A stretch of DNA of 64,000 bases from Candidatus Sulfomarinibacteraceae bacterium (GCA_963796455.1 CAWCLO010000006.1:229765-293764), one strand, 5' to 3'; counted from the stretch's first letter, positions 1,889 through 61,284 are shown. Made by a program: numbers and translations. The notes: generated by a model not told the origin, from the letters alone.

Positions 1889-1984
1889 ACCGTTGCCAAA
1901 ACGGAATGAGAGGAGTTCCGCTCGGCGCAGCGGTGTCACCGGAACCTCCAGGCCTCCGATCGAAAGCACTACCGACAAACCCGC

Positions 1985-3886: not shown

Positions 3887-3924
3887 CCGCATCCGTGTAA
3901 TCTGGCGGTGCTGAGGGGGAATCA

Positions 3925-17633: not shown

Positions 17634-17822
17634 CAGATCTCCTCCTCTGGTCAAAGAGACGGGTATCCGTCAGCATAACGAACCCCTGAAATGACTGTCA
17701 TCAATATGTGAGATACGGATTACAGGTAAATGGTTTCATGGTGGGTTTTGTGTGAACGGCAGTTGAGAAGACCCTGCTATTCTCTCCCACGTCCGGGAGA
17801 ACCCGGTGAAATCGGGAGGCAC

Positions 17823-36287: not shown

Positions 36288-36617
36288 CCACCTTTCCCCA
36301 ACAGTTGCCAGGTTCGGTTGTGTTGATGTTATGGATTTCTCACCGGTGGTGACGGTCTCTTCGTGTCGATACCCCGCACAGAGCATCCTGGTGTTCGTCG
36401 AATGATAGATAACCCGAGCAAAATCATCTATTTTGATGAGAAAATCCATTCGTTTGAACGATTGCATTAGCCCCGGTCGCGCCATATTGTGTTAAATGAG
36501 GGCGATTCGGTGGAATGGGGGGGCATCCTGTTCACCATCAAGTCCGGTTCTTTCCTTGTCACGATCGCTTTGGTGCTGAGTCGGTGTTTTTATGCTCTCA
36601 TCCCAGAATTCGACCAC

Positions 36618-39116
36618 ATGGGAGGCGTTGTGAGTTCTTTCTACGGGAAACCGATACGTGGGTTGTTGACGGCCTCGGTCTTTGCTGTCCTTGCCTTTGC
36701 CTCGACACTCGGATTGCACGCTGGAGAGTTGAAGGCTGAGGCCGAAGACCCAAGTTGTGTGTGGTCCACCAACTTCACCGTGGGCGATCTCGACGGCGGA
36801 GTGTGGGACTCGGTCGTTTTTGACGACGGGAGCGGACCAGCCCTCTATGTGGGCGGCTCATTTCTTCGCGCGTCGGGGCTCGAAGTCAATCACGTTGCCC
36901 GATGGGACGGCGAATCCTGGTCAGCTCTGGCGGGATCGACCGACGTCGGAGTGAACGAGGAGGTGCGGGCCCTGGGGGTCTTCGATGACGGGTCCGGGCC
37001 GGCTCTCTATGTGGGTGGGGACTTCACCGAAGCAGGCGGCGCCGCAGCAGCCCACGTCGCACGATGGGACGGTTCTGCCTGGACGACGCTCACAGGGGCG
37101 TCGGGGTCGGGCACATCAGGGCCAGTGTGGTCGTTGACAACCTTTGACGATGGCGACGGCAACGGGTTGTACGTTGGTGGAGATTTCGATGACGCCGGTG
37201 GGATCGAGGTCAAGCACATCGGGCGGTGGAGTGGAACTGAATGGTCGGCCCTGACCGGGACTACCGGAACGGGCACAAACGACGTGGTTCACAAGATGAT
37301 CACGTGGGACGATGGTTCCGGAACGTCGCTTTTTTTGGGCGGCCGATTCTCGTGGGCCGGGGGCACCCCGATGGCGAGGATCGCCGAGTGGGACGGCACC
37401 GATTGGATCGCGTTGACGGGTTCGTCCGGATCCGGCACCGGAAGTTGGGTGGAGGACCTCGCGGTCTACGACGACGGCACAGGCTCAGCGCTCTTCGCCG
37501 GCGGCCATTTCACCACCGCCGGGGGGGTGGCGGCGAACCACGTCGCCAAATGGGATGGAACCGAGTGGTCGGCTCTCGTTGGACCGGGTGGGAATGGCGC
37601 AGATAATACCGTCTGGTCTCTCGGAGTCTTCCAGGGCCGGCTGATCGCCGGGGGCCGCTTGGATACGGCCGGCGGTGTGACGGCGAGCGGTATCGCAAGC
37701 TGGGACGGCAGCTCGTGGGCCGGAATGAGTGGCCCCTCCGGAGTCGGGATCGAGGGCACAGTTGATGCACTGGTGGTCTACGACGACGGGTCAGGCGACG
37801 GCCTCTACGCGAGCGGGAGCCTGTTCCTTGCTGGCGGGAGATATGCAAACAACATCGCGCGATGGGACGGAGAGAAATGGTCTTCCCTGGGAGATCCTGC
37901 TGGCGATGCTGTCAACCGTTCCGTCAAGGCCCTCGTGACCTGGAACGATGGCGGCGGCGAGATCCTCGTGGCCGGCGGCCAATTCGGAGGGGCCGGCGAC
38001 ATCACTGCGAAAAACATCGCGGCGTGGAACGGCAGCCAATGGTCTGCCTTCTCGGGAGCCGCCGGAGAAGGAACGGACGGGATGGTCGAAGCCATTGCAG
38101 TGTACGATGACGGATCGGGATCCGCCCTCTACGTTGGCGGTTGGTTTGATCACGCCGGAGGCGTCGAGGTCAACGGAATCGCGAAATGGGACGGCAGCGA
38201 GTGGTCGGCGCTAACCGGACCCGGTGGTACCGGCGTTGATGGCAACTCGGTGCGGGCCCTCGCGGTCTTCGACGATGGGACCGGACCTGCGCTCTACGCG
38301 GGTGGGTCTTTCTCCACCGCGGGAGGCACGACAGTCAACAACATCGCGCGGTGGGACGGGGACGGGTGGGCTCGCCTCATTGGTCCCTCCGGCATCGGCA
38401 CGACCAGCGCCGTCGAAGCGTTGGCGGTCTTCGATGATGGCGACGGGGCGTCGCTTTTCGCTGCCGGTCAGTTCACCACCGCAGGTGGAATCACCGTCAA
38501 CTACGTCGCGAGCTGGGACGGGGAAGAATGGCACCCTGTAGGAAATCCAGCGGATCCCGGGTTCAGCTACTCGGTTGAGACTCTCGCTGTCTATGACGAC
38601 GGTTCCGGTGCCTCGCTGTACGCGGGCGGTCAATTTGCCTGGGCGGGAAAGGACTCGACCAGTCCCGATGTGGTGAATCACATCGCCCGATGGGATGGCG
38701 GGCTGTGGACCGCGCTCGACGACGGGGTGGCCATCGGCACACCTGGAGCGGTCTACACACTTGCCGCCTATGACAACAACGGGAGCTCACTTTTGATTGT
38801 CGGGGCATCGACTTCCACCATCGGCAGCGTTCCCGCGAAAAACCTCGGGTCCTGGGACGGCACGTCATGGTCAACCCTCGATGGTCCCCATGGCGAGGGT
38901 GTGAATTACAGACCGGTCACCGCTACGTCATACGACGACGGTGACGGCAACGCCCTCTTCGTCGGGGGTGGCTTCAAGACCGCGGGAGGCGTCCCATCGC
39001 TCGCCATCGGACAGTGGATGTGCAGCAGTTCTCAACCCACGTTGATATTTGAAAGTGGTTTCGAGACGGGGCAACTGGACGATTGGTCGGCAGTTGTGCC
39101 CCCACCTGGGCCTTGA
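36618..39116 (+). CDS. Large secreted repeat protein: about 13 tandem ~55-aa units (likely beta-propeller blades) with a C-terminal FETG-x4-W-S-x-V-V-P tail
   Basis: Starts MGGVVSSFYGKPIRGLLTASVFAVLAFAS (signal). The repeated unit is [IV]A[RKS]WDG..W[ST]AL.G..G.G....V.AL.VFDDGSGPALY.GG.F..AGG. The protein ends FESGFETGQLDDWSAVVPPPGP. Confidence 0.8.
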   Translation: MGGVVSSFYGKPIRGLLTASVFAVLAFASTLGLHAGELKAEAEDPSCVWSTNFTVGDLDGGVWDSVVFDDGSGPALYVGGSFLRASGLEVNHVARWDGESWSALAGSTDVGVNEEVRALGVFDDGSGPALYVGGDFTEAGGAAAAHVARWDGSAWTTLTGASGSGTSGPVWSLTTFDDGDGNGLYVGGDFDDAGGIEVKHIGRWSGTEWSALTGTTGTGTNDVVHKMITWDDGSGTSLFLGGRFSWAGGTPMARIAEWDGTDWIALTGSSGSGTGSWVEDLAVYDDGTGSALFAGGHFTTAGGVAANHVAKWDGTEWSALVGPGGNGADNTVWSLGVFQGRLIAGGRLDTAGGVTASGIASWDGSSWAGMSGPSGVGIEGTVDALVVYDDGSGDGLYASGSLFLAGGRYANNIARWDGEKWSSLGDPAGDAVNRSVKALVTWNDGGGEILVAGGQFGGAGDITAKNIAAWNGSQWSAFSGAAGEGTDGMVEAIAVYDDGSGSALYVGGWFDHAGGVEVNGIAKWDGSEWSALTGPGGTGVDGNSVRALAVFDDGTGPALYAGGSFSTAGGTTVNNIARWDGDGWARLIGPSGIGTTSAVEALAVFDDGDGASLFAAGQFTTAGGITVNYVASWDGEEWHPVGNPADPGFSYSVETLAVYDDGSGASLYAGGQFAWAGKDSTSPDVVNHIARWDGGLWTALDDGVAIGTPGAVYTLAAYDNNGSSLLIVGASTSTIGSVPAKNLGSWDGTSWSTLDGPHGEGVNYRPVTATSYDDGDGNALFVGGGFKTAGGVPSLAIGQWMCSSSQPTLIFESGFETGQLDDWSAVVPPPGP

Positions 39117-39255
39117 GCGCGTTTAAACCCCGCGTTTTCAATCGGGCAAATTCAGGTCACGATTTGTTTTGGACAGCACTCGGAACTCATGGTGAATCGA
39201 GGGAACCCGCTAGATAGCTGAACCCGCGCTACTCTGATTCCGTGGAGTACGGGTC

Positions 39256-39632
39256 ATGAATCTCACGATCACCATTGACGAGGAGGTCCTTCGCCGGGCG
39301 CGGATCCGCGCCCTTCAGCAGGGCACATCGGTCAACGCTCTGCTTCGCGATTTCCTCGAAAGCTACGCCGGCTCGAACATCGAGGCGGAAGCGCGCCGTC
39401 TTCTCGCGAAAATGGCTCGTGAGTCGACTGCGTCGAGCGGCCCCGGCGGCAGAACATGGACCCGCAGCTGGTCACGCAGTCCATCGAAACCGCCCGCCGC
39501 TTCGACATCGCGATCTGGGACGCACTGATCATCGAGGCCGCGCGCGCGGCCGGCTGCACGACCGTGCTCAGCGAAGACCTCCAGGTGGGCCAGGATTTTG
39601 ACCGCGTGACAGTCGCGAATCCATTTGCGTGA
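39256..39632 (+). pseudogene. vapBC remnant: a copy of the 41098..41765 locus carrying a 291-bp internal deletion that fuses vapB to the 3' end of vapC out of frame
   Basis: The first ~70 codons are near-identical to VapB at 41098 (MNLTITIDEEVLRRARIRALQQGTSVNALL...). After GACCCGCA (39459..39466) the DNA continues as the vapC 3' end (DPQLVTQSIETARRFDIAIWDALIIEAARAAGCTTVLSEDLQ...ANPFA*, stop 39630..39632). Confidence 0.8.
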
Positions 39633-39875
39633 ATAGGCCTGTCGCGCGCACCGGGTGACACGTATCACGCCAGGGTGCCGCGGAGAGATTCGCACCTTCG
39701 TTAGGGGTGATACCCGTTATGTGGCAACCATGATCTCTCATTCTCATTGGTGCTATCCTGAAGCGCGTATCCATTGCGAATCGACAGTGAATCGGGGCTG
39801 CATGGCGGCCCGCGCCCGGCAGCCAATTCTTGAAATCCCGGGGAAGACCCGGCCCTGCAAAGGAGGACTCCACCA

Positions 39876-40319
39876 ATGTCTTTCAAGTCTCTGAACCGCT
39901 CGAGAAAACGCGCCTGGTCGACGACTCTCATTCTGGTGCCACTCCTGATGATCTGTCCAAACTTGGGCGCTGACGATCTTTCGTCAGAAATCAAAACGGT
40001 ACTGAAGGCAGAGCTCGAAAAAGAATTCGGCCCGCTCGAAGCCCAGATCATGGCCGACGACCAACAAATGTGGGGCCGGGTGATCTCTATCGACTATGAG
40101 CTCCCGGAAGGCACGCGGCTGGACGACACCTGGGGTGACAAAGTCGTCGCGGCCGCAGCCCGGTTGGGGATCACCGCGGAGGTCGACGGAAACGAGGTGC
40201 GGGCCGACGGGCAGACAATAGCCGGCAATGAAGCCTCCAGTATGCAGTTCACAACCGCCCGAAATCTCGACGATCCGGACGCCATCGCTTTCACGGCGAT
40301 GTTCACAGGGGGCGGTTGA
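39876..40319 (+). CDS. Hypothetical secreted protein
   Basis: AAAGGAGGA RBS and a signal-like N-terminus (KRAWSTTLILVPLLMICPNLGA). No family recognised. Confidence 0.5.
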   Translation: MSFKSLNRSRKRAWSTTLILVPLLMICPNLGADDLSSEIKTVLKAELEKEFGPLEAQIMADDQQMWGRVISIDYELPEGTRLDDTWGDKVVAAAARLGITAEVDGNEVRADGQTIAGNEASSMQFTTARNLDDPDAIAFTAMFTGGG

Positions 40320-40330
40320 CTTTCCGAGCG

Positions 40331-40382
40331 GGTGGCACTGAACCCAGTCTCACGATGAGGCAATGCGAAGTGTGGCGCCCAT
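40331..40382 (+). repeat. Family-2 intergenic module (copy iv, nearly full length)
   Basis: GGTGGCACTGAACCCAGTCTCACGATGAGGCAATGCGAAGTGTGGCGCCCAT, starting 12 nt after the stop of 39876..40319. Confidence 0.75.
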
Positions 40383-40453
40383 CTGATCGTTCAGCTGATC
40401 CAAGCGAATTTGCAGAGTGATTCGTGGGGCCCAAACCCGTCCACGCTGCCTTG

Positions 40454-40789
40454 TCAGGAGGCGCTCGGACAACCGGTAGCGACCGCGAGGGCCCTGCACA
40501 CCTCGTCCATGACATCTGCGCTGAGGTGGCCGATGAAACTGCACAACCGAGATCGATCGACGGTTTGAACGTGGTCCAGATTGACCGCAGAATCACGCTT
40601 CAACCCGTGCTCTATCCCGACCCGCACCTCGCTGGGAACCCCGTAAATCGCTGATGTGATCGGCGCCACCATCACCGTCCGCAGAAGCGGGATCACGCTC
40701 TGCCGGCTGATAACCAGCACCGGCCGCCTCTTGTCAGGTTTGGCGAAGTCGTAAATCCAGATGTCGCCGCGCTTCACTCTTCGGGCCAC
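40454..40789 (-). CDS. Type II toxin, MazF/PemK-family endoribonuclease
   Basis: VKRGDIWIYDFAKPDKRRPVLVISRQSVI...VAPITS matches the PemK/MazF pattern. Confidence 0.85.
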   Translation of the reverse strand: MARRVKRGDIWIYDFAKPDKRRPVLVISRQSVIPLLRTVMVAPITSAIYGVPSEVRVGIEHGLKRDSAVNLDHVQTVDRSRLCSFIGHLSADVMDEVCRALAVATGCPSAS

Positions 40790-41007
40790 GAACCCTCCTC
40801 GCCCCAGCCGTCAAGTTCTTCACTGACTTGGAGGCTGTCGCCGTAGCCCTGTTTGTATTGGGCATCCATGCGCGCTTCACGCTGACTCTCGAGATAGGCC
40901 GAAACCAGCCCTCGCAGTACCTTCGAGCGGCCGATCCGTTGGACCTCCTCGTCCTCGTCCAGGCCTGCCAGCAGTTTCTCGTCGATTAAAATCTGTACAT
41001 GTTTCAT
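40774..41007 (-). CDS. Cognate antitoxin (ribbon-helix-helix / CopG-like)
   Basis: 77-aa ORF that overlaps the toxin start by 16 nt. MKHVQILIDEKLLAGLDE...RSKVLRGLVSAYL fits an RHH fold, and the tail is acidic. Confidence 0.7.
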   Translation of the reverse strand: MKHVQILIDEKLLAGLDEDEEVQRIGRSKVLRGLVSAYLESQREARMDAQYKQGYGDSLQVSEELDGWGEEGSWPEE

Positions 41008-41097
41008 GTTGATAATATATGTTGATATTTATGATGAATCAAGGCAAACGGTTGGATAATTGATCCCGTGCTACACTGATTCCGTGGAGCACGGTCT

Positions 41098-41364
41098 ATG
41101 AATCTCACCATCACCGTTGACGACGAGGTCCTTCGCCGAGCCCGGATCCGCGCCCTTCAGCAGGGCACATCGGTCAACGCTCTGCTTCGCGAGTTCCTCG
41201 AAAGCTACGCCGGCTCGAACATCGAGGCGGAAGCGCGGCGTCGCCTCGCGACATTGGCTCGTGAGTCAACCGCGTCGAGCGGCTCCGGCGGCAGAGCATG
41301 GACCCGCAACGACGTCTACAGCGACCGCTTCGATCACGATCAGTCGGTCCACGAATCAGAATGA
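41098..41364 (+). CDS. vapB: Type II antitoxin VapB (RHH-like)
   Basis: MNLTITVDDEVLRRARIRALQQGTSVNALLREFLESY; its stop overlaps the vapC ATG (ATGA at 41361..41364). Confidence 0.8.
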   Translation: MNLTITVDDEVLRRARIRALQQGTSVNALLREFLESYAGSNIEAEARRRLATLARESTASSGSGGRAWTRNDVYSDRFDHDQSVHESE

Positions 41365-41765
41365 GCTCTTTTGTCGACACCAATGTCGTGGTCTATGCCT
41401 TCGACCTTGCCGATCCGCCCAAACAGCGCGTTGCCATCGAGATCCTGGAAAAAGGCGACCGCCTCGTGCTCAGCACCCAGGTCCTGCTCGAAACATGGTG
41501 GGTGCTGACTCGTAGGCTCGCCAACCCACTTGAAGACTCCCAGGCATCGGAAGTTATCGATCGACTCAGTGAACTGCCGGTCGTTTCCACCGACCCGCAG
41601 CTGGTCACGCAGTCCATCGAAACCGCCCGCCGCTTCGATATCGCGATCTGGGACGCACTGATCATCGAGGCAGCCCGTGCGGCCGGTTGCACGACCGTGC
41701 TCAGCGAAGATCTCCAGGCGGGCCAGGATTTTGACGGCGTGACAGTGGCGAATCCATTCGTTTGA
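41361..41765 (+). CDS. vapC: Type II toxin VapC (PIN-domain ribonuclease)
   Basis: MSSFVDTNVVVYAFD..., ...STQVLLE..., ...DALIIEAA..., showing the acidic PIN residue pattern; this is the internal start of ORF 41298..41765. Confidence 0.85.
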   Translation: MSSFVDTNVVVYAFDLADPPKQRVAIEILEKGDRLVLSTQVLLETWWVLTRRLANPLEDSQASEVIDRLSELPVVSTDPQLVTQSIETARRFDIAIWDALIIEAARAAGCTTVLSEDLQAGQDFDGVTVANPFV

Positions 41766-41861
41766 ACCAGCCTGTCGCACGAACTGGATCACGTGCGCCA
41801 CGCCAAGGTGCTCCTGATGATGCGAGCTCCTGCGTGGTACGCTTTTCGGTAGGACCAATCG

Positions 41862-44800
41862 ATGAGAAGTACCCCCAGAGCTTCCGTGAATCCACTGTGT
41901 GGTTGCACGCCCGCCGCCTGGCGGGTGCGAGGGGCGATGGCGGCTGTGCTCGTTTTCGCTGTGGTGCTCCCCGTGACCGCTGCCGTTCAGCCAGAAGACC
42001 CGGTCGCAGTCGAACGGCTCCGCAGAACGGTTGGCGGAGGCTCGAGCGTCAGCCTTGATCGAGCCACCGGCACCGTGAGCTTCTTGAGAATCGAGACACC
42101 ACTGAAGGTCGAGACGAAGACCGGGCAGATACCTCACGAGCAGACTATGGCTTTTCTCGAGACGCAAGCCGGTGCATTCGGTCTCGACGATCCCCGGAGC
42201 GAACTCGTTCTGCTCGGCACATCGATCGACCGTTTCGGCTTTTCGCACGCACGGTACCAGCAGTTTCATCGCGGGGTTCCGGTGTTCGCTTCCGACCTAC
42301 GCAGCCACTTCGACCGCGACGGCGCGCTGGTGGCCATCAGCTCGACGATAGTTCCGATTGGAACCCTCGACCCGGTGGCCGGTATCCCAACCAAGCGCGC
42401 AGCAACAATCGCAGTGACCGCCGTCGAAGAACTGCTGGAATCTCGGCGCGTTGGATTAATCCTCAATGCTCTCGAACCACAGCTCATGATCTTCCGCACG
42501 GGCCTCCTGCAAGGCATCGCCGGGCACAACCATCTTGCCTACCGTATCGAGGTGGTCGACCGGGCCCGCGGGATTCGCGAGTTTCTCTTCGTCGACGCTC
42601 ACTCCGGCACGGTCCTGGATCGGATCAGCGGCATCCACCACGACATCGATCGTGAGATCTTTTCGGGCGCCTTCGACCCCGCAAACCTGGTGTGGTCCGA
42701 GGGAGACACCCTGCCGTTCGTGGGCGACGAGGCCGCTGCCATCAACAACCTGATCGACTTCGCTGAGGACAGCTACAACTTCTTTCTCACCCTCAGCGGC
42801 GGCACCCACCCGTCCTTCGACGCCGCCGACGCCACCATGAAGAGCGTCTTCGACGACGAAGCGCTGGGCTGCTTGCTCGCGCCCAACGCTTCCTGGAATG
42901 GTGTCAACACCAGCTACTGCAGCGGCACCACAGCAGACGACGTGGTGGCTCACGAGTGGGCCCATGCCTACACCGAGTACAACCACGGGTTGATCTACCA
43001 GTGGCAGCCGGGCGCCCTCAACGAGTCCTACTCGGACATCTTCGGTGAGGTCATCGACTGGCTCAACGGCGCCGGATCGGACGCGCCGTTGACGGCCCGA
43101 TCGAGCGACGGGACCGAGTGTTCGGCCTACGACCCCGTCAGCCCGGGTTCCGACGACAGCCTCCGCTGGCTCGAGGGCGAGGACGCCACGGCCTTCGGCG
43201 GCGCCATCCGCGATCTGTGGAGTCCGGAGTGCCACGATCATCCCGGGCGGGTGAGCTCCACCTCCTACAAGTGCTCGATCGAGGATGGCGGCGGCGTCCA
43301 CAGCAACTCTGGGGTCCCGAACCACGCTTTCGCCCTGCTCGTCGACGGTGGCACGTACAACGGCCAGGCGATCTCGGGAATCGGGCACATCCGGGCAGCC
43401 CAGATCTACTGGTACGCCATGACCACCTATCAGGGGCCGGCCACCGATTTCGCCGACCACGCCGATGCGCTCGAGGCTTCGTGTACCGCACTCATCGGCG
43501 TCGATCTGCCGGCGCCGAGCACTGACACGGACACTCCCGAATCCTCGGGGCTCACGATCACCGCGGGCCACTGCGCGGAACTCGCCAAGGTCATCCTGGC
43601 GACGGAGCTGCGGTCGGAGCCGACACAGTGCGGTTTCGAACCCATCTTCGATCCCGATCCCCCAGCGCTGTGCGCAGGGCTCGGCGCCAAGCAGACCTTT
43701 TCCTTCACCGACTGGGAGACCGGGCTCGGCGGTTGGACCGTGAGCACCCGTGACGTGCTCAGCCCGTCAACCTTCGACACACCCGACTGGGCTGTCGTCG
43801 GCGATCTCCCGGACGCACGCGCCGGGATGGCGGCCTTCGTCGATGACATCCTGGGCGGCGACTGCGTCGATGATCTCGAGGCCGGCGTGCTGATCCTCGA
43901 AAGCCCCGATATCGAGATCCCGGCGGGCGCCCAGGTGCCTCGCATCGCCATCGACCAGTGGCTGGCGACCGAAGTGTTGCAGGACGGCGGCAACCTCAAG
44001 GTGAGCGTCAACGGCGGGCCCTTCGACCTGGTACCGATCTCCGCCTTCGACGTCGGCCCCTATAACGACACCCTGGCGGTCCTTGTCATCACTCCCGATT
44101 TCGATATCGGAGAGAGCGACAACCCGATGCGGGGCGAGGCCGCCTTCACCGGCACCGACGGTGGTGAGGTCAGCGGTAGTTGGGGCCAGTCCCACGTCTC
44201 GCTCTACGGCCCCGCCGCACCGGCGACACCATCAGGCTGCGATTCGAGTTCGGCATCGACGGCTGCAACGGCCTCACCGGCTGGTACGTGGACGAAGTCG
44301 AGTTCTACAGCTGCGCCGACGAGCTGCCGCCTTCTGATTGCGGCAACGGTTCCTACGACGAAGGCGAGATCTGCGACGACGGCAACGCGGTCAACAACGA
44401 CGGGTGCTCCAACACCTGCCAGGTCGAACCAGGCTGGCAGTGCACCGAACCAATGGCTTCAGGAACCATCGAAGACCCGAGCTTCGAGGCCGGCTACCCA
44501 AGCACCGCTTGGACGGTCGAATCCGATGCCGGGCTCCCGGTCATCTGCAGCTACGGGACCTGCTTTGCCGACGTCGCCTACGACGGCGACTGGTACGCAT
44601 GGTTCGGCGGCGTCTTCTTCGACCCCGAGGAGGCCAGCCTGAGCCAGGACATCACCATCAACGAAGACAACACAACGCTCGACTTCCACCTGATGATCGA
44701 CGCCTGCGACAGCGCAGCCGACTATCTCGAGGTCCTGATCGACGGCGAGCAGGTTTGGAGCGTCACCGGCTCCAGCCCACTCTGCGGAAACACCTCGTGG

Positions 44801-45022
44801 AGCGCCCACTCCATCGACGTCACCGGCTCCAACGACGGCGAAAGCCACACCCTCACCTTCCACAGCCAGACCTTCGCCCAGAACCTGCTGTTCTCGAACT
44901 TCTACATCGACCAACTCAGCCTTCCCGGCCAGGCAAGCGTCTGCACCGCGGATCCGCCCCCCATTTTTACCGACGATTTCGAAACCGGAAGCCCTTCAGA
45001 GTGGACTTCTTCCGTGCCCTGA
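41862..45022 (+). pseudogene. Secreted M4 (thermolysin-family) zinc metalloprotease with a long C-terminal extension, interrupted by one apparent frameshift near 44205-44225
   Basis: The catalytic core VVAHEWAHAYTEYNHGLIYQWQPGALNESYSDIFGE carries HExxH plus NExxSD. After ...SWGQSHVSLYGP the sensible reading moves to the frame of ORF 44180..45022 (GDTIRLRFEFGIDGCNGLTGWYVDEVEFYSC). That frame contains the Cys-rich repeat CGNGSYDEGEICDDGNAVNNDGCSNTCQVEPGWQC and ends IFTDDFETGSPSEWTSSVP. The span is 3161 nt, which is 3n+2. Confidence 0.8.
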
Positions 45023-45027
45023 GCCAT

Positions 45028-45159
45028 CCTCACAATTGCCATCCAACTGCTCAGGCCCAAAACGGTCTTAGGAATTTCTCGCATGGGTGCATGGGTGCCA
45101 CTGATCACAACCTCACAATTGCCATTCACCTGCCAGGCCCAACGGTCTTTCGAATTTGC
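45028..45159 (+). repeat. Family-2-related tandem duplication (two units 83 bp apart) directly after the protease stop
   Basis: Unit 1 (45028..45078): CCTCACAATTGCCATCCAACTGCTCAGGCCCAAAACGGTCTTAGGAATTTC. Unit 2 (45111..45159): CCTCACAATTGCCATTCACCTGCCAGGCCCAACGGTCTTTCGAATTTGC. Between them lie ATGGGTGCC (45091..45099, the only inverted core box) and ACTGATCACAA. Confidence 0.75.
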
Positions 45160-45268
45160 ACAATCAATCGAGGAAACGCCAATTCGTTGGGCCTCAATCC
45201 TCTCAAAAAATTTTTGATCGAGCAGAATAGACGATCCTGAAAACCCCCGGTAAACACGGTTGCGTATA

Positions 45269-45293
45269 TATCGCGTGATGAAGTATCGCGTGA
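45269..45293 (+). promoter_or_regulatory. Direct repeat TATCGCGTGA x2 upstream of padR (possible operator or promoter element)
   Basis: TATCGCGTGA occurs at 45269..45278 and 45284..45293 (15-bp period), about 60 nt upstream of the PadR start. Confidence 0.3.
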
Positions 45294-45352
45294 CGTAGTT
45301 TCTCTCCGCGCGCCAGCGATTGAGGGAACTCTTCAGAACCTGGAGGCCTGCG

Positions 45353-45685
45353 ATGTTCAGCGCCAACCTGAAACGGGGCAGCATCGAACTGCTGATCCTC
45401 TCGACCTTGGAAAACCGGGTCCGACATGGCTATGAGATTGGGGAGCCGCCGGAGAAGCGCTCGTCGGGCCGGCTCGAGTTCCGGGTTTCCACTCTCTACA
45501 CCGCGCTTTATCGGATGGAGGAGCGTGGCTGGATCAAAGGCCGATGGGTCGAGAAGGCCCGTGAGCGGAGACGTTGTTACTACACGCTGACGCCGGCCGG
45601 CAAAAAGATTCTGGCCAGCCAAGAGAAGGGAGTGGAACAACTTTCGTCCACGATCAACCAGGTGATCGGGCTGAGCCATGCCTGA
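45353..45685 (+). CDS. PadR-family transcriptional regulator
   Basis: ATG at 45353 follows CTGGAGG. LKRGSIELLILSTLENRVRHGYEI...STLYTALYRMEERGWIKGRWVE...RRCYYTLTPAGKK is the PadR winged-helix pattern. Confidence 0.85.
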   Translation: MFSANLKRGSIELLILSTLENRVRHGYEIGEPPEKRSSGRLEFRVSTLYTALYRMEERGWIKGRWVEKARERRRCYYTLTPAGKKILASQEKGVEQLSSTINQVIGLSHA

Positions 45686-48381
45686 TCGAGCCCGCCACCG
45701 AGCCGTCCGAGAACTGGCCGATCACCTCGAAGACCTGTATCAAGAGGCGCTCGATCGGGGCGCCACCGATGACGAGGCCCAAGAGTATGTGGAAACAAAA
45801 CTGGGCGAGACCGCCGACACCGCCGCCGACGTCCTGACGGCGGCTCGGGAAAAACTCGGAAGCCGCCTTGGCAACTGGGCCGAGGGGCGCGAGGACAGCC
45901 TTCTGGGCTCGAACGCCTCTTTCGCCGCGGCGGCTGACCGGCTGCGCGAGCTTCGGTTGGCGGTGCGCTCGTTGATGAGACGACCCGCTTCTTTCTCCTG
46001 GTGGCCATGGTCTCCCTGACCATCGGCATCGGGGCCAACACGGCCATTTTTTCGCTGGTGAACGCCGTTTTCATCCGCCAGTTTCCTTACGAGAATTCCG
46101 AACAGTCCGTGCGGGTCTATACCGTGGTTCCAGAACCGCACCGACTACGGAACAAGCTCGTTCCCGAACTACCTGGACATCCGCGACTTTGACGGTCCTT
46201 TCCAGGCCTCGGGGCGTTTAAGACGGTACTTTCGCGGGTGGAGCTCCAGGACGAGACCGTCCGCATCATGGGTGAGGCGGTCTCCCAGACTCTCTTTCCC
46301 ATGCTGGGCGTGGACACCGCTATTGGTCGGTCATTCCTGCCAGAGGAGGAGAACCCGGCGCACACCCGGTGATGATGCTGGGGCACGGCTTCTGGCAGCG
46401 CACCTTCGCAGGCGACCCGGAGATCGTCGGCAAGACGATCCGTCTCGCGGGGAGGGAGCTTTACGGTTGTGGGTGTCACCCCGGAGGGCTTCCACGGGCT
46501 GACGGGCGCCGTGTTCCGCGGACTTCTTCGTCCCCCTGGTGATGTACCCAACGGTGTCCGGATCGTCGAACGACTCACACCTCGAGGACCGGCTCGACCG
46601 CAGGTACTTCGTGTTGGGCAGGGTCGCCGAGGGGGTGACGCTGGAGAGCATGCGGGCAGGTCTCGAGGTGCTCGCCAGCCGCATCCAAAAAGACAACCCC
46701 GACATCGATCAGGAGTGGATCTTCACGACCGTTCCCCTGGAGGACGTGGCTCTCGATCCGGAGTTCGACAGCGCCGTCAAGCCCTTTGCCATGCTCTTCA
46801 TGGCCGCCGGTGGTCTGGTCCTGCTCCTGGCTTGCACGAATCTGTCGTCATTCCTCCTGGCCCGAGGTGCGGAGCGCGAGAAGGAGATCGCACTCCGGCT
46901 CGCCATCGGCGCGCAACGCGGCGCACTGGTACGGCAGCTGCTCACCGAGACGATGCTCTTGGCGTTGCTGGGTGGGGCCTCGGGGCTCGTGGCTTCCCAA
47001 GGGCTGTTGAGCCTGCTCGCCCGTTACCAGCCCCCACTTCCGGTTCCCATCACCCTCGACCTGGGGTTGGACATGACGGTTCTCCTCTTCACCTTCGGGA
47101 TCTCGTGCCTGGCCGGTCTGCTCTTCGGCCTGGCACCGGCCCTGCGCAGCACCAGCCCCGATGTGCCTTCAGCCCTGAAGGAAGGCACGGCCGCGACTCG
47201 TCATCGACGTTTCGGTCTGCAGAACGGTCTCGTGGCTTTCCAGATGGAGCTGTCGGTCGTACTACTGATGGGAGGCGGCCTTTTCGTGCGCAGCCTGGCG
47301 GCAGCCGAAATGCGGACCTGGGTTTCTCCACCAGGAACGCGGAAATCGCCTGGTTGGATCTTTCGATCAGCGGCGTTCCGGCCGCCGAGCAGCTCGCCAT
47401 GCGGGATGAGCTGACTCGCCGGGCTCGCGCCCTACCCGGCATCGACAAGGCGACCTCTGCGTCGCACATCCCCTTCCTGTTCCCCGCCAGCGGCGGGTTC
47501 TCTCCATCCCAGGTGCTGATCCGCCGCCCCGGGGGTCCGGCCACAACGTGCAACGGGAGGAGGTTGACCCGGAGTTTTTCGCGACGATGGGGATCCCGGT
47601 GCTGGAGGGACGATCCTCACCAACGACGATCGCCCGGACACCCGTGCTGTCGCCATGGTGAACGAGACCGCCGCCAAACGCTTCTGGCCCGGAGGAACCC
47701 CCGTGGGCAGGCAATTCTCCCTACCTCGAATCCGAAAGCACGGTGCGGATCGTTGGTGTCGTCAAGGACACCAAGGTCGAGCGGCTCCGGGAACCAGCCA
47801 AACCGCTCTTCTACTTCCCCATCGCACAGAGCCCGGACTCGGACATCGTGCTGGTGGCCCGCAGCCCCGCGGCACCCGAGGAGATCACCGTGATGCTCAA
47901 AAAGGAGTCGATCCGGGAAGTGAGCCCGAGCCTGATGATCATGGATGCGAAGACGATGGAGGAAAACGTCGGCGTGATCCTGCTCCCGGGCCGCATTGCC
48001 GCCTTTCTCCTGGGTGTCTTCGGCCTGCTCGCGCTGACCCTCGCCTCCATCGGACTTTATGGCGTGGTCAGCTTCTCGGCTACCCGGCGCACCCGTGAGA
48101 TGGGCATCAGGATTTCCCTCGGGGCCGACGCACGGACACTGATCGCCATGATCCTGAGGAGCGCCATGGCCGTGGTGGGCATCGGGGGAATCGTCGGCCT
48201 CGCCACCGCTTTCGGCCTCGCCCAGCTCGTCCGGCACGTGCTGTACGGGGTGGGGCCTTTGGACCTCGCGACCATCCTCGGCGTGCCCTTTGTGCTCAGC
48301 TGCGTGGCTGCTGGAGCCGCTCTGATCCCTGCGCTCCGTGCGAGCCAGGTGGACCCGGTGAAGGCCCTGAAGTACGAGTAG
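45678..48381 (+). pseudogene. ADOP-family duplicated permease (PadR-linked), broken by at least eight frameshifts
   Basis: The ATG overlaps the padR stop. Recognisable ADOP blocks sit in alternating frames: ...RELRLAVRSLMRRPA / FFLLVAMVSLTIGIGANTAIFSLVNAVF / TSSFPNYLDIRDF / VELQDETVRIMGEAVSQTLFPMLGVD / PVMMLGHGFWQRTFAGDPEIVGKTIRL / FVPLVMYP...LLLACTNLSSFLLARGAEREKEIALRLAIGAQRG... / LGFSTRNAEIAWLDLS / VDPEFFATMGIPVLEGR / AVAMVNETAAKRFWPGG / VRIVGVVKDTK...TREMGIRISLGA...ASQVDPVKALKYE*. Confidence 0.8.
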
Positions 48382-48523
48382 GCGGAATAGCGTATTCGCG
48401 GCGATCTGAGGTTTGCTCACAGAGCATTCCACCAGGCCGTATCCGAAACCGCCGGTCGCCGGACCGTCTCGCTCAGAATGACAGGGTTCCGATCGGCACA
48501 TTGACATGTGAAATAATCCGTCG

Positions 48524-49710
48524 ATGCGAGTTTTGCGTGCCGTCGCCCTGATTGCCGTTCTGAGCGTTACGACATCGTGCGCCCGTGACCCGGACCCCAT
48601 GGGTCTGACCGACCGGGCGCTCGACGATGCCATCGCTGGAATCGAAGCGGGACACAGAACCACACCCGTCGTCGTACAACCGGCCCCCGGCTCGGACGCA
48701 ACGGTCACCTTCCTGGTCAAGAGCTCCAACGGTCCCGTACCCCGCATCGTCTCGGATGTCACTGGATGGGGCGAGAGCCCGGACGACAGCTTCTTCGACC
48801 AGTCCATCGGCACGATGACCCGATATCGCTTGACCGACTGGTACCGGCTCGAGACCCAAGTCGCCGCACGCTCCCGGATCGAGTACCTGGTCGTGCTCGG
48901 CGATACCGACTACCGGGTCGATCCAAACAACCCGCGACGGGCATGGTCGCGCGGCGGCCACGCCGTCTCCGAATTCGTGACCCCCGACCACGTGCCGCCG
49001 CCCGAGCTGACCGACCCTCCCGTGACACCTCACGGCAGAACGATCGAAGCGGCAATCGACAGCCGCGCACTCGGCGCGCCGCGCCGGTTGCTCGTCTGTC
49101 GCCTCCCGGTTACCGCGGCGACGGCGGCTACCCGGTCGCGGTGTTTCACGCCGGCCGGGGGGTGGCGCACGAAGGACAGGCAGCGCGCGTTCTCGATTGG
49201 ATCATCGCCCACGGGGAAATCGAACCGATCGTAGGCCTGTTCCTGGATTCGTACCTTCCAGGCGATCCCGACAACCACGAGGGGCCGCCTCTCCGCACAT
49301 TCCTGACCGAGGAGGCGCCGCGATGAGTTTGGCCCCGGGCTATGCCGTCTCAGCATCGGTGCGAGATGGGCTGTCCTCGCCATTTCCTACGCGCGAGAGG
49401 ATGCCCTCCATGCCGCCCTCTCCCCCACCCGGGCATTCGGACGACTCGGGCTGCTGATTCCGGGGCGACGGTTGACCTCCTCGAACATCGAGGAGTTTTC
49501 GCTCCAGCATGGGCATCGCCTCCAGATCGCCATCGTCGCAGGCCGCTACGACCAGGCCAACCTCCCCACGGCTCGAAACGCACAACGGGCACTTGCAGAC
49601 GCCGGCCACGCGTCGATTTCATCGAGATCCCAGAAGGCCACAACGCCACAACTTGGCGCAACCACCTTCGCGACGCGTTCGTCAGCCTCTTTGGTGGTCA
49701 CGACACCTGA
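48524..49710 (+). pseudogene. Secreted esterase (enterochelin-esterase/esterase-D-like fold), several frameshifts
   Basis: The lipoprotein-like signal MRVLRAVALIAVLSVTTSC and an N-terminal beta domain are in frame 1. PPGYRGDGGYPVAVFHAGRG...IVGLFLDSY is in frame 2. RAFGRLGLLIPG (in the frame of ORF 49472..49717) and VDFIEIPEGHNATTWRNHLRDAFVSLFGG (ORF 49342..49710) are in further frames. The family call is from motif memory only. Confidence 0.55.
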
Positions 49711-49752
49711 TCAATAACCAAGGCGCACGATAGGCCGCGCGATACACAGTAA

Positions 49753-49810
49753 CAATGGTGCAATGGTGAGGGTGGCACCCATCGAAAGGTGCCGCGCATC
49801 CGGCACCCAT
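49753..49810 (+). repeat. Family-2 intergenic module (copy viii) with two exact GGCACCCAT boxes
   Basis: CAATGGTGCAATGGTGAGGGTGGCACCCATCGAAAGGTGCCGCGCATCCGGCACCCAT. Boxes lie at 49774..49782 and 49802..49810, with the hairpin GGCACC-N8-GGTGCC. Confidence 0.75.
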
Positions 49811-49927
49811 CCCGACCCTTTAATACTCTCCACTCAATAATGCACCCCGAAAACCGTATAGATAAAGAGACCTCGACGATAAACTGGTCTCTAGGAAGGA
49901 CGCCTTTCTCAAGGCGGGGGATTTCTC

Positions 49928-51576
49928 ATGACCAACGGAAACGAGACCGCCACTGGTTACCTCTCAGAGGCAAACAAAAAGAAATTCACGTTGACTGCCG
50001 GCGTCCTCGGAGCGGCATTCCTGATCGGCCAGTTCCTTCTGCCGATGCTCTTGATGTTCGGACTGATGGCCGGCGAGATCACCGGCTTTGGCACAGACGA
50101 CACCCTGTACGCCTATCCGCAGCGATCGGCGGTCCTCGACGACACGCTCTACTACGTGGTTCGCCGAAGCTCGTTGGGCCCGGAGGGATTGCCCGCAGCC
50201 ATAAAACAGCTTGATCTCGACCTCACCCAGCCGCCCGTCGAAACCATCCAGATGCCGGACACGGGAGTGTCGCTGATCGCCAGCGACGGCCGTCTATATG
50301 TCCATTCTCAAACCGAACCGCAGCCATCTGAAAGATAAAGAGCCCATCAAGGTGCGACCCCAGGGCACCCTCCAGGCGGCAATCAGGCAAAGGGTCTTCT
50401 ACCAGGCGCTCCGCCGGTCCTGGAACGCTGGCCCACGTCACTTGTTCTCGCCACGCACTGGGACGAAGGCTGGCAACGCGGCCCCAGCCTCGAGTTGATC
50501 ATGCCCGACCCGGATTGCCGATGCGGCTTTTCCTGGGTGCATGCCATTGCCGATGACAGCGGTCTGCACGTATTCCTCGAGCTCGGATCGACGCTCTACT
50601 ACGGTCTTTGGGACCCGACTTCGGACATCGAAGTCAATTGGCAGCTCGTCGGGTCAGCCGGCCGGAGCTGGTGGCCTCTTTTCGACAACGGCCGACCAGT
50701 CGTTTTCACCCTCACCCCCAGAGATCAAGACGGCGAGTTCGTCGGTCTTCGGCAGCACGAGACAGGCTGGGAGGAGTTCTTCCGCGGGGGCTACGCGCCC
50801 GACTCCGACATCTCGGCCTACCCGTTGTCGGATCCGGGGAGCTTTCTGGTGCTCGCCGGTTCCGGCTACAACAGCAGTATCAAGGCCACGATCGTCCGCG
50901 GTGCGGATATCTCTGACGAATTGATCATCGACGAAGAGATCGAAGAAATCGGCGAAAAACCCGTCGACGATTTCGGCCGCACCATGTACCTCTTCATGGG
51001 CGTCCAGTACGGTGCGACGTTCCTGCTCCCGATGCTGCTGGCCATGATTCTCTCCATCTTGATGAAGCGTCATCGCATCGCCACCGTTCGCACTCAAGAC
51101 GGCGAAGCATCTCATGCTTCCTGACCCGGCGCGCGATCGCCCAGTTCATCGACGCCCTCGTGATGGCCGCACCGGCGGTCCTCGGGATATGGTTTGCCTC
51201 AACGGACTTCTGGACCCCCATTGGTACCTGGCAGAGGGCTTCTGGGAAAGTGTGGGCTCGATTACCCCCATCCTCGGCGGCCTCACGGCTTCCTTCTTGA
51301 TGTTCTTCGTATTCGCCTACACCGAGGGGAAACGCGGTGTGACCCGGGAAGTGGGCTACCAGAATTCGAGTTCTAGGCACCGACCTCCAACCGTGCGGAT
51401 TCTCCCGCGCGCTGGTTCGCAACCTGCTGAAGGTGATCGACGGCTTTTTCAACTTCATGGTCGGAATCATGGTGGTCGCTCTCAGCGAAAACTGGCAGCG
51501 AGTCGGCGACATGGCCGCCCGGACGGTGGTTGTCAACTCGCCCTTGCCCACACCGAATCCAGTGGGAAACGAATAA
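49928..51576 (+). pseudogene. Membrane protein with C-terminal RDD domain, split over at least four frames
   Basis: ORFs 49928..50338 and 50495..51124 form the N-terminal TM and body. Then come LTRRAIAQFIDALVMAAPAVLGIW and GKRGVTPGKWATRIRVLG...LVRNLLKVIDGFFNFMVGIMVVALSENWQRVGDMAARTVVVNS...* (stop 51574..51576), which is RDD-family-like. Confidence 0.55.
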
Positions 51577-51639
51577 GGCGCTGTCCTTCCCTTGCAGCCT
51601 GTGAATGTGGAGGTGGCACCTTTTCGTTGCCCCCGACAA

Positions 51640-52435
51640 CTCACCGAACCGTGCCGTTTGCGACCGGCACCGCAGGGATAGCCCTCGCTATTTTCGCCTC
51701 CTACCTGTGGACCTGGCGTAGCTTTCATCCTTCACCAATGCCATCAAGGTGTGCAGGGATCTGTTCTGTGACTTCGTGATCTATTACTACCCCATGGGGG
51801 AGGCAATCTTCCGCACGGGGCTTCCAGTGGAGGGCTTCCTCTACTCCCCGTTCGTCGCCATCCTGCTGGCGGGTATCCGCCGTTGGGCATCACAGCGTCT
51901 ACCGTTGATCTGGGGCATCCTGCAATCTATTGCCGTGATTCTGTACGTAGTATTGTTCCACCGGCTCGTTCCTGCCGGGCTTCCGATCCAGTTTCTGTTC
52001 GTCGCCCTGCTCCTTTCATCTTTTCCCCTCCCTGCTCAATCTCCTGGCCGGTCAGGTGGGGGTTTCTCATGGTGGTCGCCCTGTTGGGTTCATTCCGCGA
52101 CTCGGGATGGGTGGTAGCCAACCCGCACTCGCAGTACTTCCCGCACTTCGTCCTTCGTCTGGCTGAATTGTCGGGACACGACGGCACGTCCACCTCCCGA
52201 TTCTGTGTTGGGTCGCCATTGGCATCGCGGTCGCGGCACGCGGTTTGGGGTTGACTTCATTCTTTTGACCGTATCAATCGTCTTTTCGAATATCGTCTTC
52301 TTCAACATATTCGGGAGCTTTTACAACTACGGGTATCTCGGCTTCCTGTTCTGCGCCAACCTGTTGCTCATCATCTCGGCGTACGCAGAACTCCTCCCTC
52401 CCTCCTGGGGATCGATTCGAAACAACCGGAGCTAG
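51640..52435 (+). pseudogene. Remnant of a polytopic membrane protein (possibly GT87/DUF2029-like glycosyltransferase), frameshifted
   Basis: DFVIYYYPMGEAIFRTGLPVEGFLYSPFVAILLAGI and later hydrophobic stretches lie in different frames (ORFs 51749..52117, 51883..52254, 52205..52435). The family assignment is weak. Confidence 0.3.
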
Positions 52436-52484
52436 CATCCCGAGACGTCCGTCCTCAAAGCGTCACGCGGCATCCATGAAAATT

Positions 52485-52528
52485 CAGCAATGCGGTATGT
52501 GGCACCAATGGCACCCATATACACCCAT
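52485..52528 (+). repeat. Family-2 intergenic module (copy ix)
   Basis: CAGCAATGCGGTATGTGGCACCAATGGCACCCATATACACCCAT, with the exact box at 52510..52518. Confidence 0.7.
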
Positions 52529-52541
52529 GTTTAACAACACA

Positions 52542-53793
52542 TCAGGGCACCACCGACGACCACGCCGAGGTATCTCCGGTTTCGAAACCGTCGTGAAGGA
52601 GGACGAACGGAATGATGTCGTAGACAAAAGCCTCCCCACCGGGAGGATCGGCTCCAAATGGGAGCGGCCATGACCCATGACAGGTTGGATGCAGCCACCC
52701 CGTAGCTGTACATTGCATGCGCCTGGGGATCTGGAGGATCCAAGATGACCTCAAGATTCCATCCTCTATCCCCTCTTTCATACACGTGAACGGCGCCGGC
52801 ATCCTCCGCCCAGAAGTCATCCTGGTACTTACCAACCAGCAGGGTTCCATCACTGATCGCCAATTTCCTTCCAAAGTTCTCCCAGTACACGAAATTCTGG
52901 GGGTGGAGATTCGCCGAGAGAACCCAGTCATCGTCTATGAACTCCCAGACATAAACCGACCCGAGGCCATAGCCGTCGTGCTCCTCGAGCGACGAGGCGG
53001 CGATCGTACGATTCTGGGAGATGCCGACCGCGAATCCCAGCCCGTTTGCATCCGCGATTGACTTCGAACCCCAGAACGACCACACGCTTTCGCTTCGGGT
53101 CAAAATCCCGATGTATCCGTCCATGCTGGGCGGGGCATCGAATTTCCCCGCCACGAGCACGTCTTCGGTCATGCTCAGCACATCACCGACCCTCGATCCG
53201 TCCCAGGACTCTGCCTCCCAGATCTGGGTGTGCGCCCACACCTCGCCGTTGAACCGATAAAAGGCAATCTCACCGTTGTCCCGAAACGGAAGCCCCACAG
53301 CCATCCAGATCCCCTTCAGGGCGACGGCAGCCCCAAAGTGATCGCTATGGGCGGTGCCATGTGGGTTCGAGATCTTCTGACTGAACTGCCATTGACCATC
53401 GATTCTCCGAAACACGAGGACCACCTGTTCCTGTGACGCACCGACCGCAATGTGGGGACCGTCGATCGACAGTGAACCGCCGGAATTGCAGAACCCCGAA
53501 TATGCAGGGATACCTTCTGGTTCGAGCTCCTCCACGAACTCCCAGCCATCGAGGGTTCTTCCGTAGATATACAAAGCGCCCTGGGTGAGATCGTGCATAT
53601 GACTCGGCGCACATGCAGCCAATGTGTTGCCTGAGATGGCAACGTTGTAACCGTAGCGGTCTCCCGAGACCCCATCTCCTGGTGCCAGAATAAGTGGGGG
53701 AGGAATCTCCTCTGCAGCCGTGGAGTTTGGACCAATAACAACCAACGCCACAAATACTGAAACCAGTCCAACGGTTTTTGGTGTCATTTTCAT
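52542..53793 (-). pseudogene. Secreted FG-GAP-like beta-propeller repeat protein with a FETG-x4-W-S-x-V-V-P tail; one apparent frameshift near 52657
   Basis: Starts MKMTPKTVGLVSVFVALVVIG (signal). It has repeated units such as YGYNVAISGNTLAACAP, FGAAVALKGIWMAVG and GAVHVYE. The main frame is lost after ...SWVMAAP, and the frame of ORF 52542..52931 continues FGADPPGGEAFVYDIIPFVLLHDGFETGDTSAWSSVVP*. Confidence 0.75.
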
Positions 53794-54028
53794 CAGTGTC
53801 TCCCTTGGTCTCGAGACAGCTCCCGTAATAGAACAGGCCGACATACGATGTCCAGCCCAGAAGGGTGACAATTCGAAGATATGGAATCTGGCACCCTCCA
53901 GAACCAATTGCGCTAGCTGCAATTTGGATGCCATAAACCCATGAGCGAATTGAGATCGCCTGGTGAGACAAGTCCATTTTTCGATCCAACCGAATCGCCA
54001 TCTGTCCCAGTTTGAAGCGAAACGGTGC

Positions 54029-54252
54029 CGATCTCATCCTCACAATGAGGTAATGCACATCGTGGTGTGCATGCCCGAACGAATCCGGGACGACGCATTG
54101 GGAAAGGAGGCACCAATCAAACCACCCATTCGGTTCCCTTAATGCGGAAGTGCGGCACCCATCACAGCGATCTGGGCACCCCTCGCTCAAACACCTGGAG
54201 GACGACCCCGGATTGCGAAGGGTGGCGCCCATGGCATACAAGAGGCACCCAT
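54029..54252 (+). repeat. Family-2 cluster (copy vi): one long module plus an array of GGCACCCAT-type boxes in the divergent promoter region
   Basis: CGATCTCATCCTCACAATGAGGTAATGCACATCGTGGTGTGCAT (hairpin ATGCACA/TGTGCAT). Boxes: GGCACCAAT 54109..54117, GGCACCCAT 54154..54162, GGCGCCCAT 54224..54232 (preceded by GGATTGCGAAGGGT) and GGCACCCAT 54244..54252. Confidence 0.75.
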
Positions 54253-54300
54253 GACCTGGTAAACTCACGGTCAAAAGAACAGAAAAAGGAGTCGACGACC

Positions 54301-57888: not shown

Positions 57889-57987
57889 GGCAAGCCCCCC
57901 AAACACCTGGACGAGGACTCCGTATACTCGGTCAGCCCGCTGAGGTAATTGAATCTGATTGAGTGAATCGACCAAGGAGGATTGGTG

Positions 57988-61284
<3,297 letters not shown>

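Follow-up and report, generated by a model that had tools for sequence, protein, structure and literature searches.

A short C-terminal tail on unrelated exported proteins of Thermoanaerobaculia and Holophagae, a candidate docking or sorting tag

Why do three secreted proteins with unrelated architectures, encoded in a single stretch of DNA, end in almost the same peptide? The stretch (hereafter the window; 64,000 nucleotides, GCA_963796455.1 CAWCLO010000006.1:229765-293764, with positions counted from its first letter) comes from a Candidatus Sulfomarinibacteraceae bacterium. A preliminary description, made from the sequence alone, had noticed that a propeller-repeat protein, a thermolysin-family (M4) metalloprotease and an FG-GAP repeat protein share the motif F-E-T-G-x4-W-[ST]-x-x-V-P at the extreme C-terminus. 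Here, the motif is found to be a recurrent terminal tail of diverse exported proteins, concentrated in the Thermoanaerobaculia and Holophagae, and we lean towards reading it as a free-standing, lineage-specific tag by which Sec-exported proteins would be docked or sorted.

Tail 1 (LIFESGFETGQLDDWSAVVPPPGP; 39042-39113, plus strand, stop codon 39114-39116) terminates the propeller-repeat protein, tail 2 (IFTDDFETGSPSEWTSSVP; 44963-45019, plus strand, stop codon 45020-45022) the M4 protease and tail 3 (VLLHDGFETGDTSAWSSVVP; 52604-52545, minus strand, stop codon 52544-52542) the FG-GAP protein, as established by translation and pattern scanning and, for tail 2, an AlphaFold model. Tail 1 is a variant, with S in place of D before GFE and a four-residue extension, PPGP, beyond VP; the orthologue of its protein in the closest named relative of the window, a Ca. 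Sulfomarinibacteraceae metagenome-assembled genome (MAG) (P0204, 82% identical), terminates in LVFESDFESGQLDDWSTVEPPLQP. The motif occurs three times in the window, each time 0-4 residues before a stop codon, and six-frame translation of the whole window revealed no copy of F-E-[ST]-G-x4-W other than these three, which lie 14-18 codons from the stop. The corresponding codon-degenerate DNA pattern also matched three times, whereas 100 shuffles that preserve dinucleotides averaged 0.00 matches, bearing out the reported sharing of a terminal motif by the three proteins at the places given. Translation also confirmed that none of the tails is followed by a hydrophobic helix or a cluster of basic residues. 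Synonymous sites differ among the three tail-coding stretches, indicative of conservation at the protein level rather than of a DNA repeat. By inspection, all three carriers have signal-peptide-like N-termini, and Pfam and NCBIfam scans found their bodies (propeller repeats, M4 protease and FG-GAP repeats) to be unrelated. The tail is not a property of every exported protein of the window; the beta-lactamase-fold protein encoded at 54067-56130 lacks it.

To assess the spread of the tail, one genome per species (GTDB) was searched with the pattern [DGEAV]-F-E-[ST]-G-x4-W-[ST]-x-x-V-P, which does not include the stop codon, yielding at least 120 loci; the counts of tails and carriers given below are among the matches listed. 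In 109 of 120 in-frame matches, VP is followed directly by a stop codon, and 95 of these 109 tails are from MAGs named as Acidobacteriota (Thermoanaerobaculia, 46; Holophagae, 26; unclassified Acidobacteriota, 23, according to the record names). The 95 tails originate from at least 61 genomes, the richest of which encodes at least 8. Other phyla contribute a few DNA matches, which are W/C/R codon variants within an unrelated membrane protein. The consensus, [ILV]-F-x-D-G-F-E-S/T-G-D-T-S-A-W-S-x-x-V-P-COOH, extends beyond the search pattern, with [ILV] at 88%, F-18 at 96%, D-16 at 94% and G-15 at 95%; between the G and the W, the prevailing residues are D (72%), T (69%), S (53%) and A (63%). 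Further variants, lying 0-17 residues from the stop codon, were present in the flanks of the listed loci (WSATIP*, WSAALP*, WSSVEP* and WSDVVGMSP*). Farther upstream, the tail is preceded by an unconserved linker rich in G, P and S. A Cys 5-10 residues ahead of the conserved F is found in ~28% of tails, above background and not universally, with the examples ...QWMCSSSQPTLIF and ...SVCTADPPPIF in the window; it is probably the final disulfide Cys of the preceding domain. An origin at the DNA level, as a repeat element, recombination site or readthrough product, was considered and rejected, given that the three stop codons are all in use, synonymous positions are variable and conservation does not extend into the downstream DNA. 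The existence and distribution of the tail are in little doubt.

The proteins that bear the tail are highly diverse. A signal-peptide-like start was detected by a crude rule in 64 of the 84 carriers with a complete open reading frame, and a Pfam scan of 63 of those 64, each of at least 150 amino acids (aa), revealed 67 Pfam families, including S8 subtilases, C25, M28, InhA-MAM, FG-GAP, beta-helix, GH114, MauG-type di-haem enzymes and Lcl_C. Together with the frequency of VP-stop ends, this breadth substantiates a recurrent extreme-C-terminal tag on unrelated exported proteins. Among the NCBIfam assignments of the carrier bodies are the 'choice-of-anchor' families B, J and Q and relatives of the myxosortase- and rhombosortase-dependent M36 proteases, both of which are known to swap C-terminal sorting signals.

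Relatives of the window are present in marine-sediment and salt-marsh metagenomes. In four marine-sediment runs (X1, X2, X5 and X7), many contigs match only the 35-45 nucleotides (nt) of tail-coding DNA and have unrelated flanks, suggesting that many other genes of these communities encode near-identical tails; the contig matches to 52550-52593 of the window are 90-95% alike. A scan of a viral collection produced a single match, internal and attributable to a chance W-W occurrence. In the three window proteins and the 63 other carriers scanned, the tail is covered by no Pfam or NCBIfam model, the three tails as queries of a word-indexed protein search yielded no candidate, and a PDB sequence search with the consensus gave only an insignificant match to HasA (E ~ 0.2). 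Searches of the literature for the tail peptides and for work on protein sorting in Thermoanaerobaculia, and a paper on Ca. Sulfomarinibacter, turned up no account of the tag, which is apparently undescribed.

The provenance of the tail became apparent in an exhaustive profile search of 1.84 billion cluster representatives with the three window tails as query, which returned 460 proteins at E ≤ 0.001. Among the best 150 of these 460, the motif is exclusively C-terminal in 48 proteins, both internal and terminal in 14 and exclusively internal in 82, the last usually containing 2-8 copies with a period of 130-290 residues. The internal copies open concanavalin-like jelly-roll domains and are aligned by Pfam to positions 1-46 of CBM_4_9 (PF02018) or PF14099. 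An internal counterpart of the tail (IEDPSFEAGYPSTAWTVES; 44468-44524, plus strand) was identified by translation and in the AlphaFold model. It opens the jelly-roll of the carbohydrate-binding module (CBM) type that the M4 protein itself contains, a domain modelled with a predicted local distance difference test (pLDDT) score >90 and matched by Foldseek to CBM61/11/16/22, gingipain cleaved-adhesin and MAM domains. The preliminary description had held that a mostly internal location of the motif would speak against a terminal signal; outside the lineage this is partly the case, the motif being internal in large multi-domain proteins, and the M4 protein itself has an internal copy. The two forms are nevertheless distinguishable. 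Internal copies read ...G-[DN]-L-S-x-W-[TS] and run on into the domain sequence (L, 68%; T after W, 51%), whereas terminal ones read ...G-D-T-S-A-W-S-x-x-V-P-stop (T, 59%; S, 85%; V, 81%; P, 85%). Because terminal and internal forms differ systematically, the tail looks like a specialised, detached derivative of the jelly-roll first strand, as opposed to a sequence that arose independently or a domain truncated at random. Its source was probably the first strand and loop of a CBM_4_9/PF14099-type domain, with the buried Leu replaced by Thr and a fixed S-x-x-V-P end gained.

Several arrangements accompany the simple tail. Four proteins (P0012, P0013, P0043 and P0045) end in two or three tandem copies with a period of 20-22 aa, and the inner copy of P0012 retains VP; in two others (P0015 and P0022), the motif is followed by a mini-domain of ~70 aa and then by the tail. 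Among homologues of the C-terminal region of the M4 protein, 30 of 45 end in a shorter form, ...[ILV]F-x-[DN]-G-F-E plus 0-6 residues, while its three closest relatives have the long form; two of the short-form homologues carry organism names, Pseudomonadota and Lysobacterales. On a 136-kb contig (L123, positions 70-4419), adjoining genes for an M4 protease (936 aa) and a DUF4215 protein (472 aa) both end in short tails, IFADGFEE* and IFADGFED*, respectively, with genuine stop codons. Such ...GFE-stop tails imply that the use of a terminal first strand reaches beyond the Acidobacteriota.

What the tail does has to be judged from its context within the proteins and genomes. In the AlphaFold model of the M4 protein, the tail is unpacked (pLDDT ~40) beside the confidently modelled jelly-roll, which, along with the unrelated nature of the preceding domains in the different carriers, rules out the idea that it is the last strand of a domain common to them. 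With related carriers removed, agreement among the tails of one genome amounts to 5.26 of 10 variable positions, against 4.25 between genomes, a likeness not reached in any of 2000 permutations; the window is a case in point, all three of its tails reading FETG, compared with 12% T overall. The homologues of the propeller protein show what occupies the place of the tail elsewhere. Of 120, at least 15 bear this tail directly after the last blade and at least 14 end right after it, while dockerin-type modules are present in 25 by pattern classification, Dockerin_1 (PF00404) being on record for 8 of the 120. Homologues of 37917-39113 of the window that are of Planctomycetota type (P0206, P0223, P0237, P0276 and others) have repeated dockerin-like segments ending in ...G-C-(P), and others have the type I dockerin (PF00404); a Phycisphaerales homologue is named 'GC-type dockerin domain-anchored protein' by NCBI. 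The position of the tail, the diversity of the cargo, the overlap with choice-of-anchor families, the exchange with dockerins at the same place and the lack of a match to PEP-CTERM, LPXTG, GlyGly-CTERM or T9SS signals fit a sorting or anchoring signal.

Because the tail is unpacked, self-contained, genome-specific in flavour, placed like a dockerin and borne by selected proteins, we favour docking or sorting by a dedicated envelope component after Sec. In such a scheme, Sec would export the tagged protein across the inner membrane, after which the flexible tail, on its G/P/S-rich linker, would be bound non-covalently by one dedicated envelope receptor per genome. The receptor would then either keep the exoprotein at the cell surface, in the manner of a dockerin, or pass it on to outer-membrane export. 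Binding would be achieved most simply by beta-strand augmentation or complementation, although strand complementation in particular we regard as doubtful. Equally tentative is the proposal of a jelly-roll split in two, with the tag as its donor half, the other half being a putative envelope receptor or secretion component with a jelly-roll that lacks its first strand. Dozens of exoproteins per cell would, under this proposal, insert their C-terminal strand into the receptor in Thermoanaerobaculia and Holophagae, and the shorter ...hFxDGFE-COOH version would serve in the proteins named Pseudomonadota and Lysobacterales. If true, this would constitute a new class of bacterial protein-sorting signal, serving soluble exoproteins and requiring neither a membrane anchor nor a folded domain.

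Several observations weigh against a dedicated docking system. When the M4 jelly-roll was modelled without its own first strand, AlphaFold failed to place the tail in the vacancy with confidence (pLDDT 42-52), so that strand complementation has no computational support here. The end of the short form is ragged, with 0-6 extra residues, and a free carboxylate at a fixed place is therefore not a universal feature of recognition. The likeness of tails within a genome could reflect shuffling of tails or gene conversion instead of co-evolution with a receptor, and all carriers are from MAGs. Neither a receptor nor a processing enzyme was found; no gene recurs beside the tail-bearing genes across ~120 loci apart from a Ser/Thr-kinase-TPR family, the sole recurrent family that does not carry the tail, which is abundant and was judged irrelevant.

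Other roles of the tail have to be weighed against docking. It might be the signal for a periplasmic C-terminal-specific protease (of the S41/Tsp/tricorn type, with PDZ domain) acting in the maturation, zymogen control or turnover of exoproteins and not in their localisation. Strand augmentation is the way in which PDZ domains bind C-terminal peptides, many carriers are themselves proteases (S8, M4, C25 and M28), and ~5 kb from the FG-GAP gene the window encodes a tricorn-like protease of 1100 aa (57982-61284, plus strand), composed of a PD40 propeller, Tricorn C1, Tricorn PDZ and Peptidase_S41; the earlier statement that no candidate processing enzyme is visible in the window was thus too strong, although nothing ties this protease to the tag. 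Yet, no S41 gene recurs beside tail-bearing genes at the ~120 loci, non-enzymes (propeller, FG-GAP and beta-helix proteins) are equally tailed, the inner tandem copy keeps its VP without a free carboxylate, and the last residue of a PDZ ligand is usually hydrophobic, unlike Pro or Glu; we hold a protease signal to be unlikely. Alternatively, the tail could be a matrix glue that binds exopolysaccharide, lipopolysaccharide or the jelly-rolls of other exoproteins through its F, F and W residues. Aromatic residues are typical for sugar stacking, the tail sequence stems from carbohydrate-binding-type jelly-roll domains, and its tandem copies suggest avidity. However, a peptide of 19 residues that is predicted to be unstructured makes an unlikely sugar-binding platform, the first strand in CBM4/9/22 folds is a structural edge or core and not the ligand site, and the genome-specific flavour fits a protein partner better, leaving this role a low probability in our view.

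Some explanations would require no partner at all. The junction of linker and first strand could be a favoured break point in domain shuffling, with the tail as a functionless by-product, considering that the same motif opens hundreds of internal domains and that proteins with the motif, ~70 aa and then the tail exist alongside the shorter ...GFE-stop stubs. A neutral stub, however, would not end at the same residue in more than 100 unrelated proteins or gain a consensus of its own (T for L, S, V-P), and conservation of the peptide while synonymous sites vary, strong enrichment in one lineage and tandem duplication of the tail all make this explanation quite improbable. We consider it very improbable that the tail acts in cis, capping an exposed beta-edge or aiding the folding of the preceding domain. 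The arrangement in the M4 family, where the last strand of the jelly-roll that precedes the tail would adjoin a first strand, would lend itself to such a function, but the preceding domains are structurally unrelated among carriers (propeller, FG-GAP, subtilase and beta-helix), a flexible G/P/S linker lies ahead of the tail, and AlphaFold leaves the tail unpacked both in the native protein and in the strand-deleted construct.

The carrier genes themselves require a comment on assembly quality, given that the preliminary description located all three correctly and did not see that two of them span two frames. The propeller-repeat exoprotein (36489-39116, plus strand), assigned by domain scans and homologues, consists of Rax2/DUF5122-type blades and ends in tail 1; its real start is probably an internal Met preceding KPIRGLLTASVFAVLAFASTLGLHA. 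The M4 metalloprotease (41862-45022, plus strand), characterised by domain scans, AlphaFold and comparison with a relative, comprises an FTP propeptide, Peptidase_M4_C, an InhA-like MAM domain, a Cys-rich DUF4215 repeat, the CBM-type jelly-roll and the tail. The reading frame of its body (41862-~44220) is not that of the end with the tail (44180-45022), and the break appears to result from a G missing from a run of G at ~44221-44224; in a 98%-identical relative (P0159), the frame is uninterrupted across this site. The FG-GAP repeat exoprotein (52542-53934, minus strand), supported by domain scans and by the ENA contig L122, bears tail 3 beyond a one-base frame break at ~52659 (AAP/FGAD), with one extra base; the frame of the body ends at 52531 and that of the tail at 52542. 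The same shift is found in L122, which is 99.8% identical over the region, and the metagenome runs compared at this break contained relatives only, just the 35-45 nt of tail-coding DNA being matched.

Neighbouring genes are affected as well. An esterase (48524-49326) and a PadR-linked ADOP/FtsX permease (46539-47414 plus 47743-48381) are split in the window and intact in L122 (395 and 901 aa, respectively), and the alignment of 41811-54149 with this contig is 94.5% identical over 9.7 kb that contain 98 gap openings, with the identity rising to 99.8% in the last 1.85 kb. On these grounds, the window is indel-rich, and most of its frame breaks are probably assembly errors; the FG-GAP break may be genuine or an error. 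A stretch of ~757 bp (51540-52296), present in the window and not in L122, sits exactly where the identity shifts from 94.5% to 99.8%, and may reflect either an indel or, in one of the two assemblies, a chimeric join.

The interval from the propeller gene to the M4 gene contains a direct repeat (39189-39678 and 41031-41811, 88-89% identity), the second copy of which includes an intact PIN/VapC gene (41298-41765), with the first lacking ~283 bp. The two copies are separated by an unannotated open reading frame with a signal peptide (39876-40319) and, on the minus strand, a gene for a MazF/PemK toxin (40454-40789). Elsewhere, the window encodes a protein of 478 aa that combines a transglutaminase-like core with TPR repeats (13539-14975, plus strand), an AsmA/YhdP-family protein (6706-9234, minus strand) and MacB/FtsX (ADOP-type) permeases (15219-17654, 21591-22922 and 22939-24144), a gene content typical of Acidobacteriota.

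Thermoanaerobaculia and Holophagae are, to our knowledge, abundant and almost uncultured Acidobacteriota of sediment and soil, with an essentially unknown secretion biology. In these lineages, exoproteins of many kinds bear the tag in large numbers, among them proteases, glycosidases, adhesin-like repeat proteins and haem enzymes. A hidden Markov model of the terminal form would improve annotation of their extracellular proteomes and make the partner findable by phylogenetic profiling, and the link to the jelly-roll first strand provides a concrete, testable structural hypothesis. Known C-terminal sorting signals, such as LPXTG, PEP-CTERM and the C-terminal domain (CTD) of the type IX secretion system (T9SS), each led to dedicated machinery and are now standard aids in predicting the localisation of bacterial proteins.

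How, then, does the tail compare with such systems? As had been proposed, it is not a PEP-CTERM, LPXTG, GlyGly-CTERM or T9SS signal: no model matches it and the defining features are lacking. It resembles the tripartite signals (PEP-CTERM/exosortase, LPXTG/sortase, GlyGly-CTERM/rhombosortase and MYXO-CTERM/myxosortase) in being a short extreme-C-terminal signature on unrelated exoproteins of a genome, with a lineage-restricted distribution and an overlapping cargo (choice-of-anchor families and M36 relatives). However, PEP-CTERM (TIGR02595/PF07589) consists of the PEP motif, a hydrophobic helix of ~20 residues and an Arg/Lys cluster, none of which the tail has, and LPXTG, GlyGly-CTERM and MYXO-CTERM combine their signatures (LPXTG, GG and an invariant Cys, respectively) with a transmembrane helix and a basic tail, again unlike the tag. 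Nor is there an equivalent of the invariant Cys of MYXO-CTERM, as fewer than half of the tails have an upstream Cys, the distance of which varies. As tagged proteins end 0-4 residues after VP, a membrane-bound sorting enzyme could not act on a membrane-anchored precursor in the same way, and without the features common to all tripartite signals, the partner and the mechanism are likely different.

The T9SS CTD (Por_Secre_tail) is closer in that it tags diverse Sec-exported cargo of Gram-negative bacteria at the C-terminus without a membrane anchor, but it is a folded beta-sandwich of ~70-100 residues in Bacteroidota and relatives (TIGR04183/PF18962). The tag, by contrast, has 19 residues, belongs to Acidobacteriota, follows an unconserved linker, is unstructured in AlphaFold models and matches no model. 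The outer-membrane beta-signal, in which a terminal F, Y or W closes the amphipathic last strand of a barrel, differs from tags that end in V-P or G-F-E on soluble-domain carriers. Donor-strand complementation, through which a short terminal strand completes the unfinished beta-sandwich of another protein in chaperone-usher and type V pili, offers a mechanistic analogy only; the AlphaFold test in cis lent it no support, and no acceptor domain was found. At the level of sequence, the nearest counterpart is the N-terminal strand of CBM_4_9 (PF02018), PF14099 or LamG-type jelly-rolls, which reads hF-x-D-G-F-E-[ST]-G-x-x-x-x-W and thus includes the F-E-x-G-x4-W core; the tail, nonetheless, corresponds to ~15-19 of the 136-210 domain positions and is far from the complete beta-sandwich of ~130-210 residues.

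Dockerins (type I, PF00404, and the 'GC-type' anchors of Planctomycetota) are likewise C-terminal additions to many unrelated secreted proteins without a membrane helix, they occupy the same place as the tail in propeller homologues, and they presumably share with it non-covalent docking to a partner in lineage- or genome-specific flavours. They are, however, folded Ca-binding modules of ~60-70 residues built from duplicated ~22-residue DxDxDG loop-helix segments, whereas the tag has ~19 residues and no such motif, and the Pfam scan of the three window proteins and the 63 carriers detected no PF00404. Among the matches listed, several unrelated exported proteins of one genome bear the tag and its phyletic range is restricted, both of them general attributes of a docking or sorting tag; by analogy, its mode of action would come closest to that of dockerins and sorting signals, while it belongs to neither.

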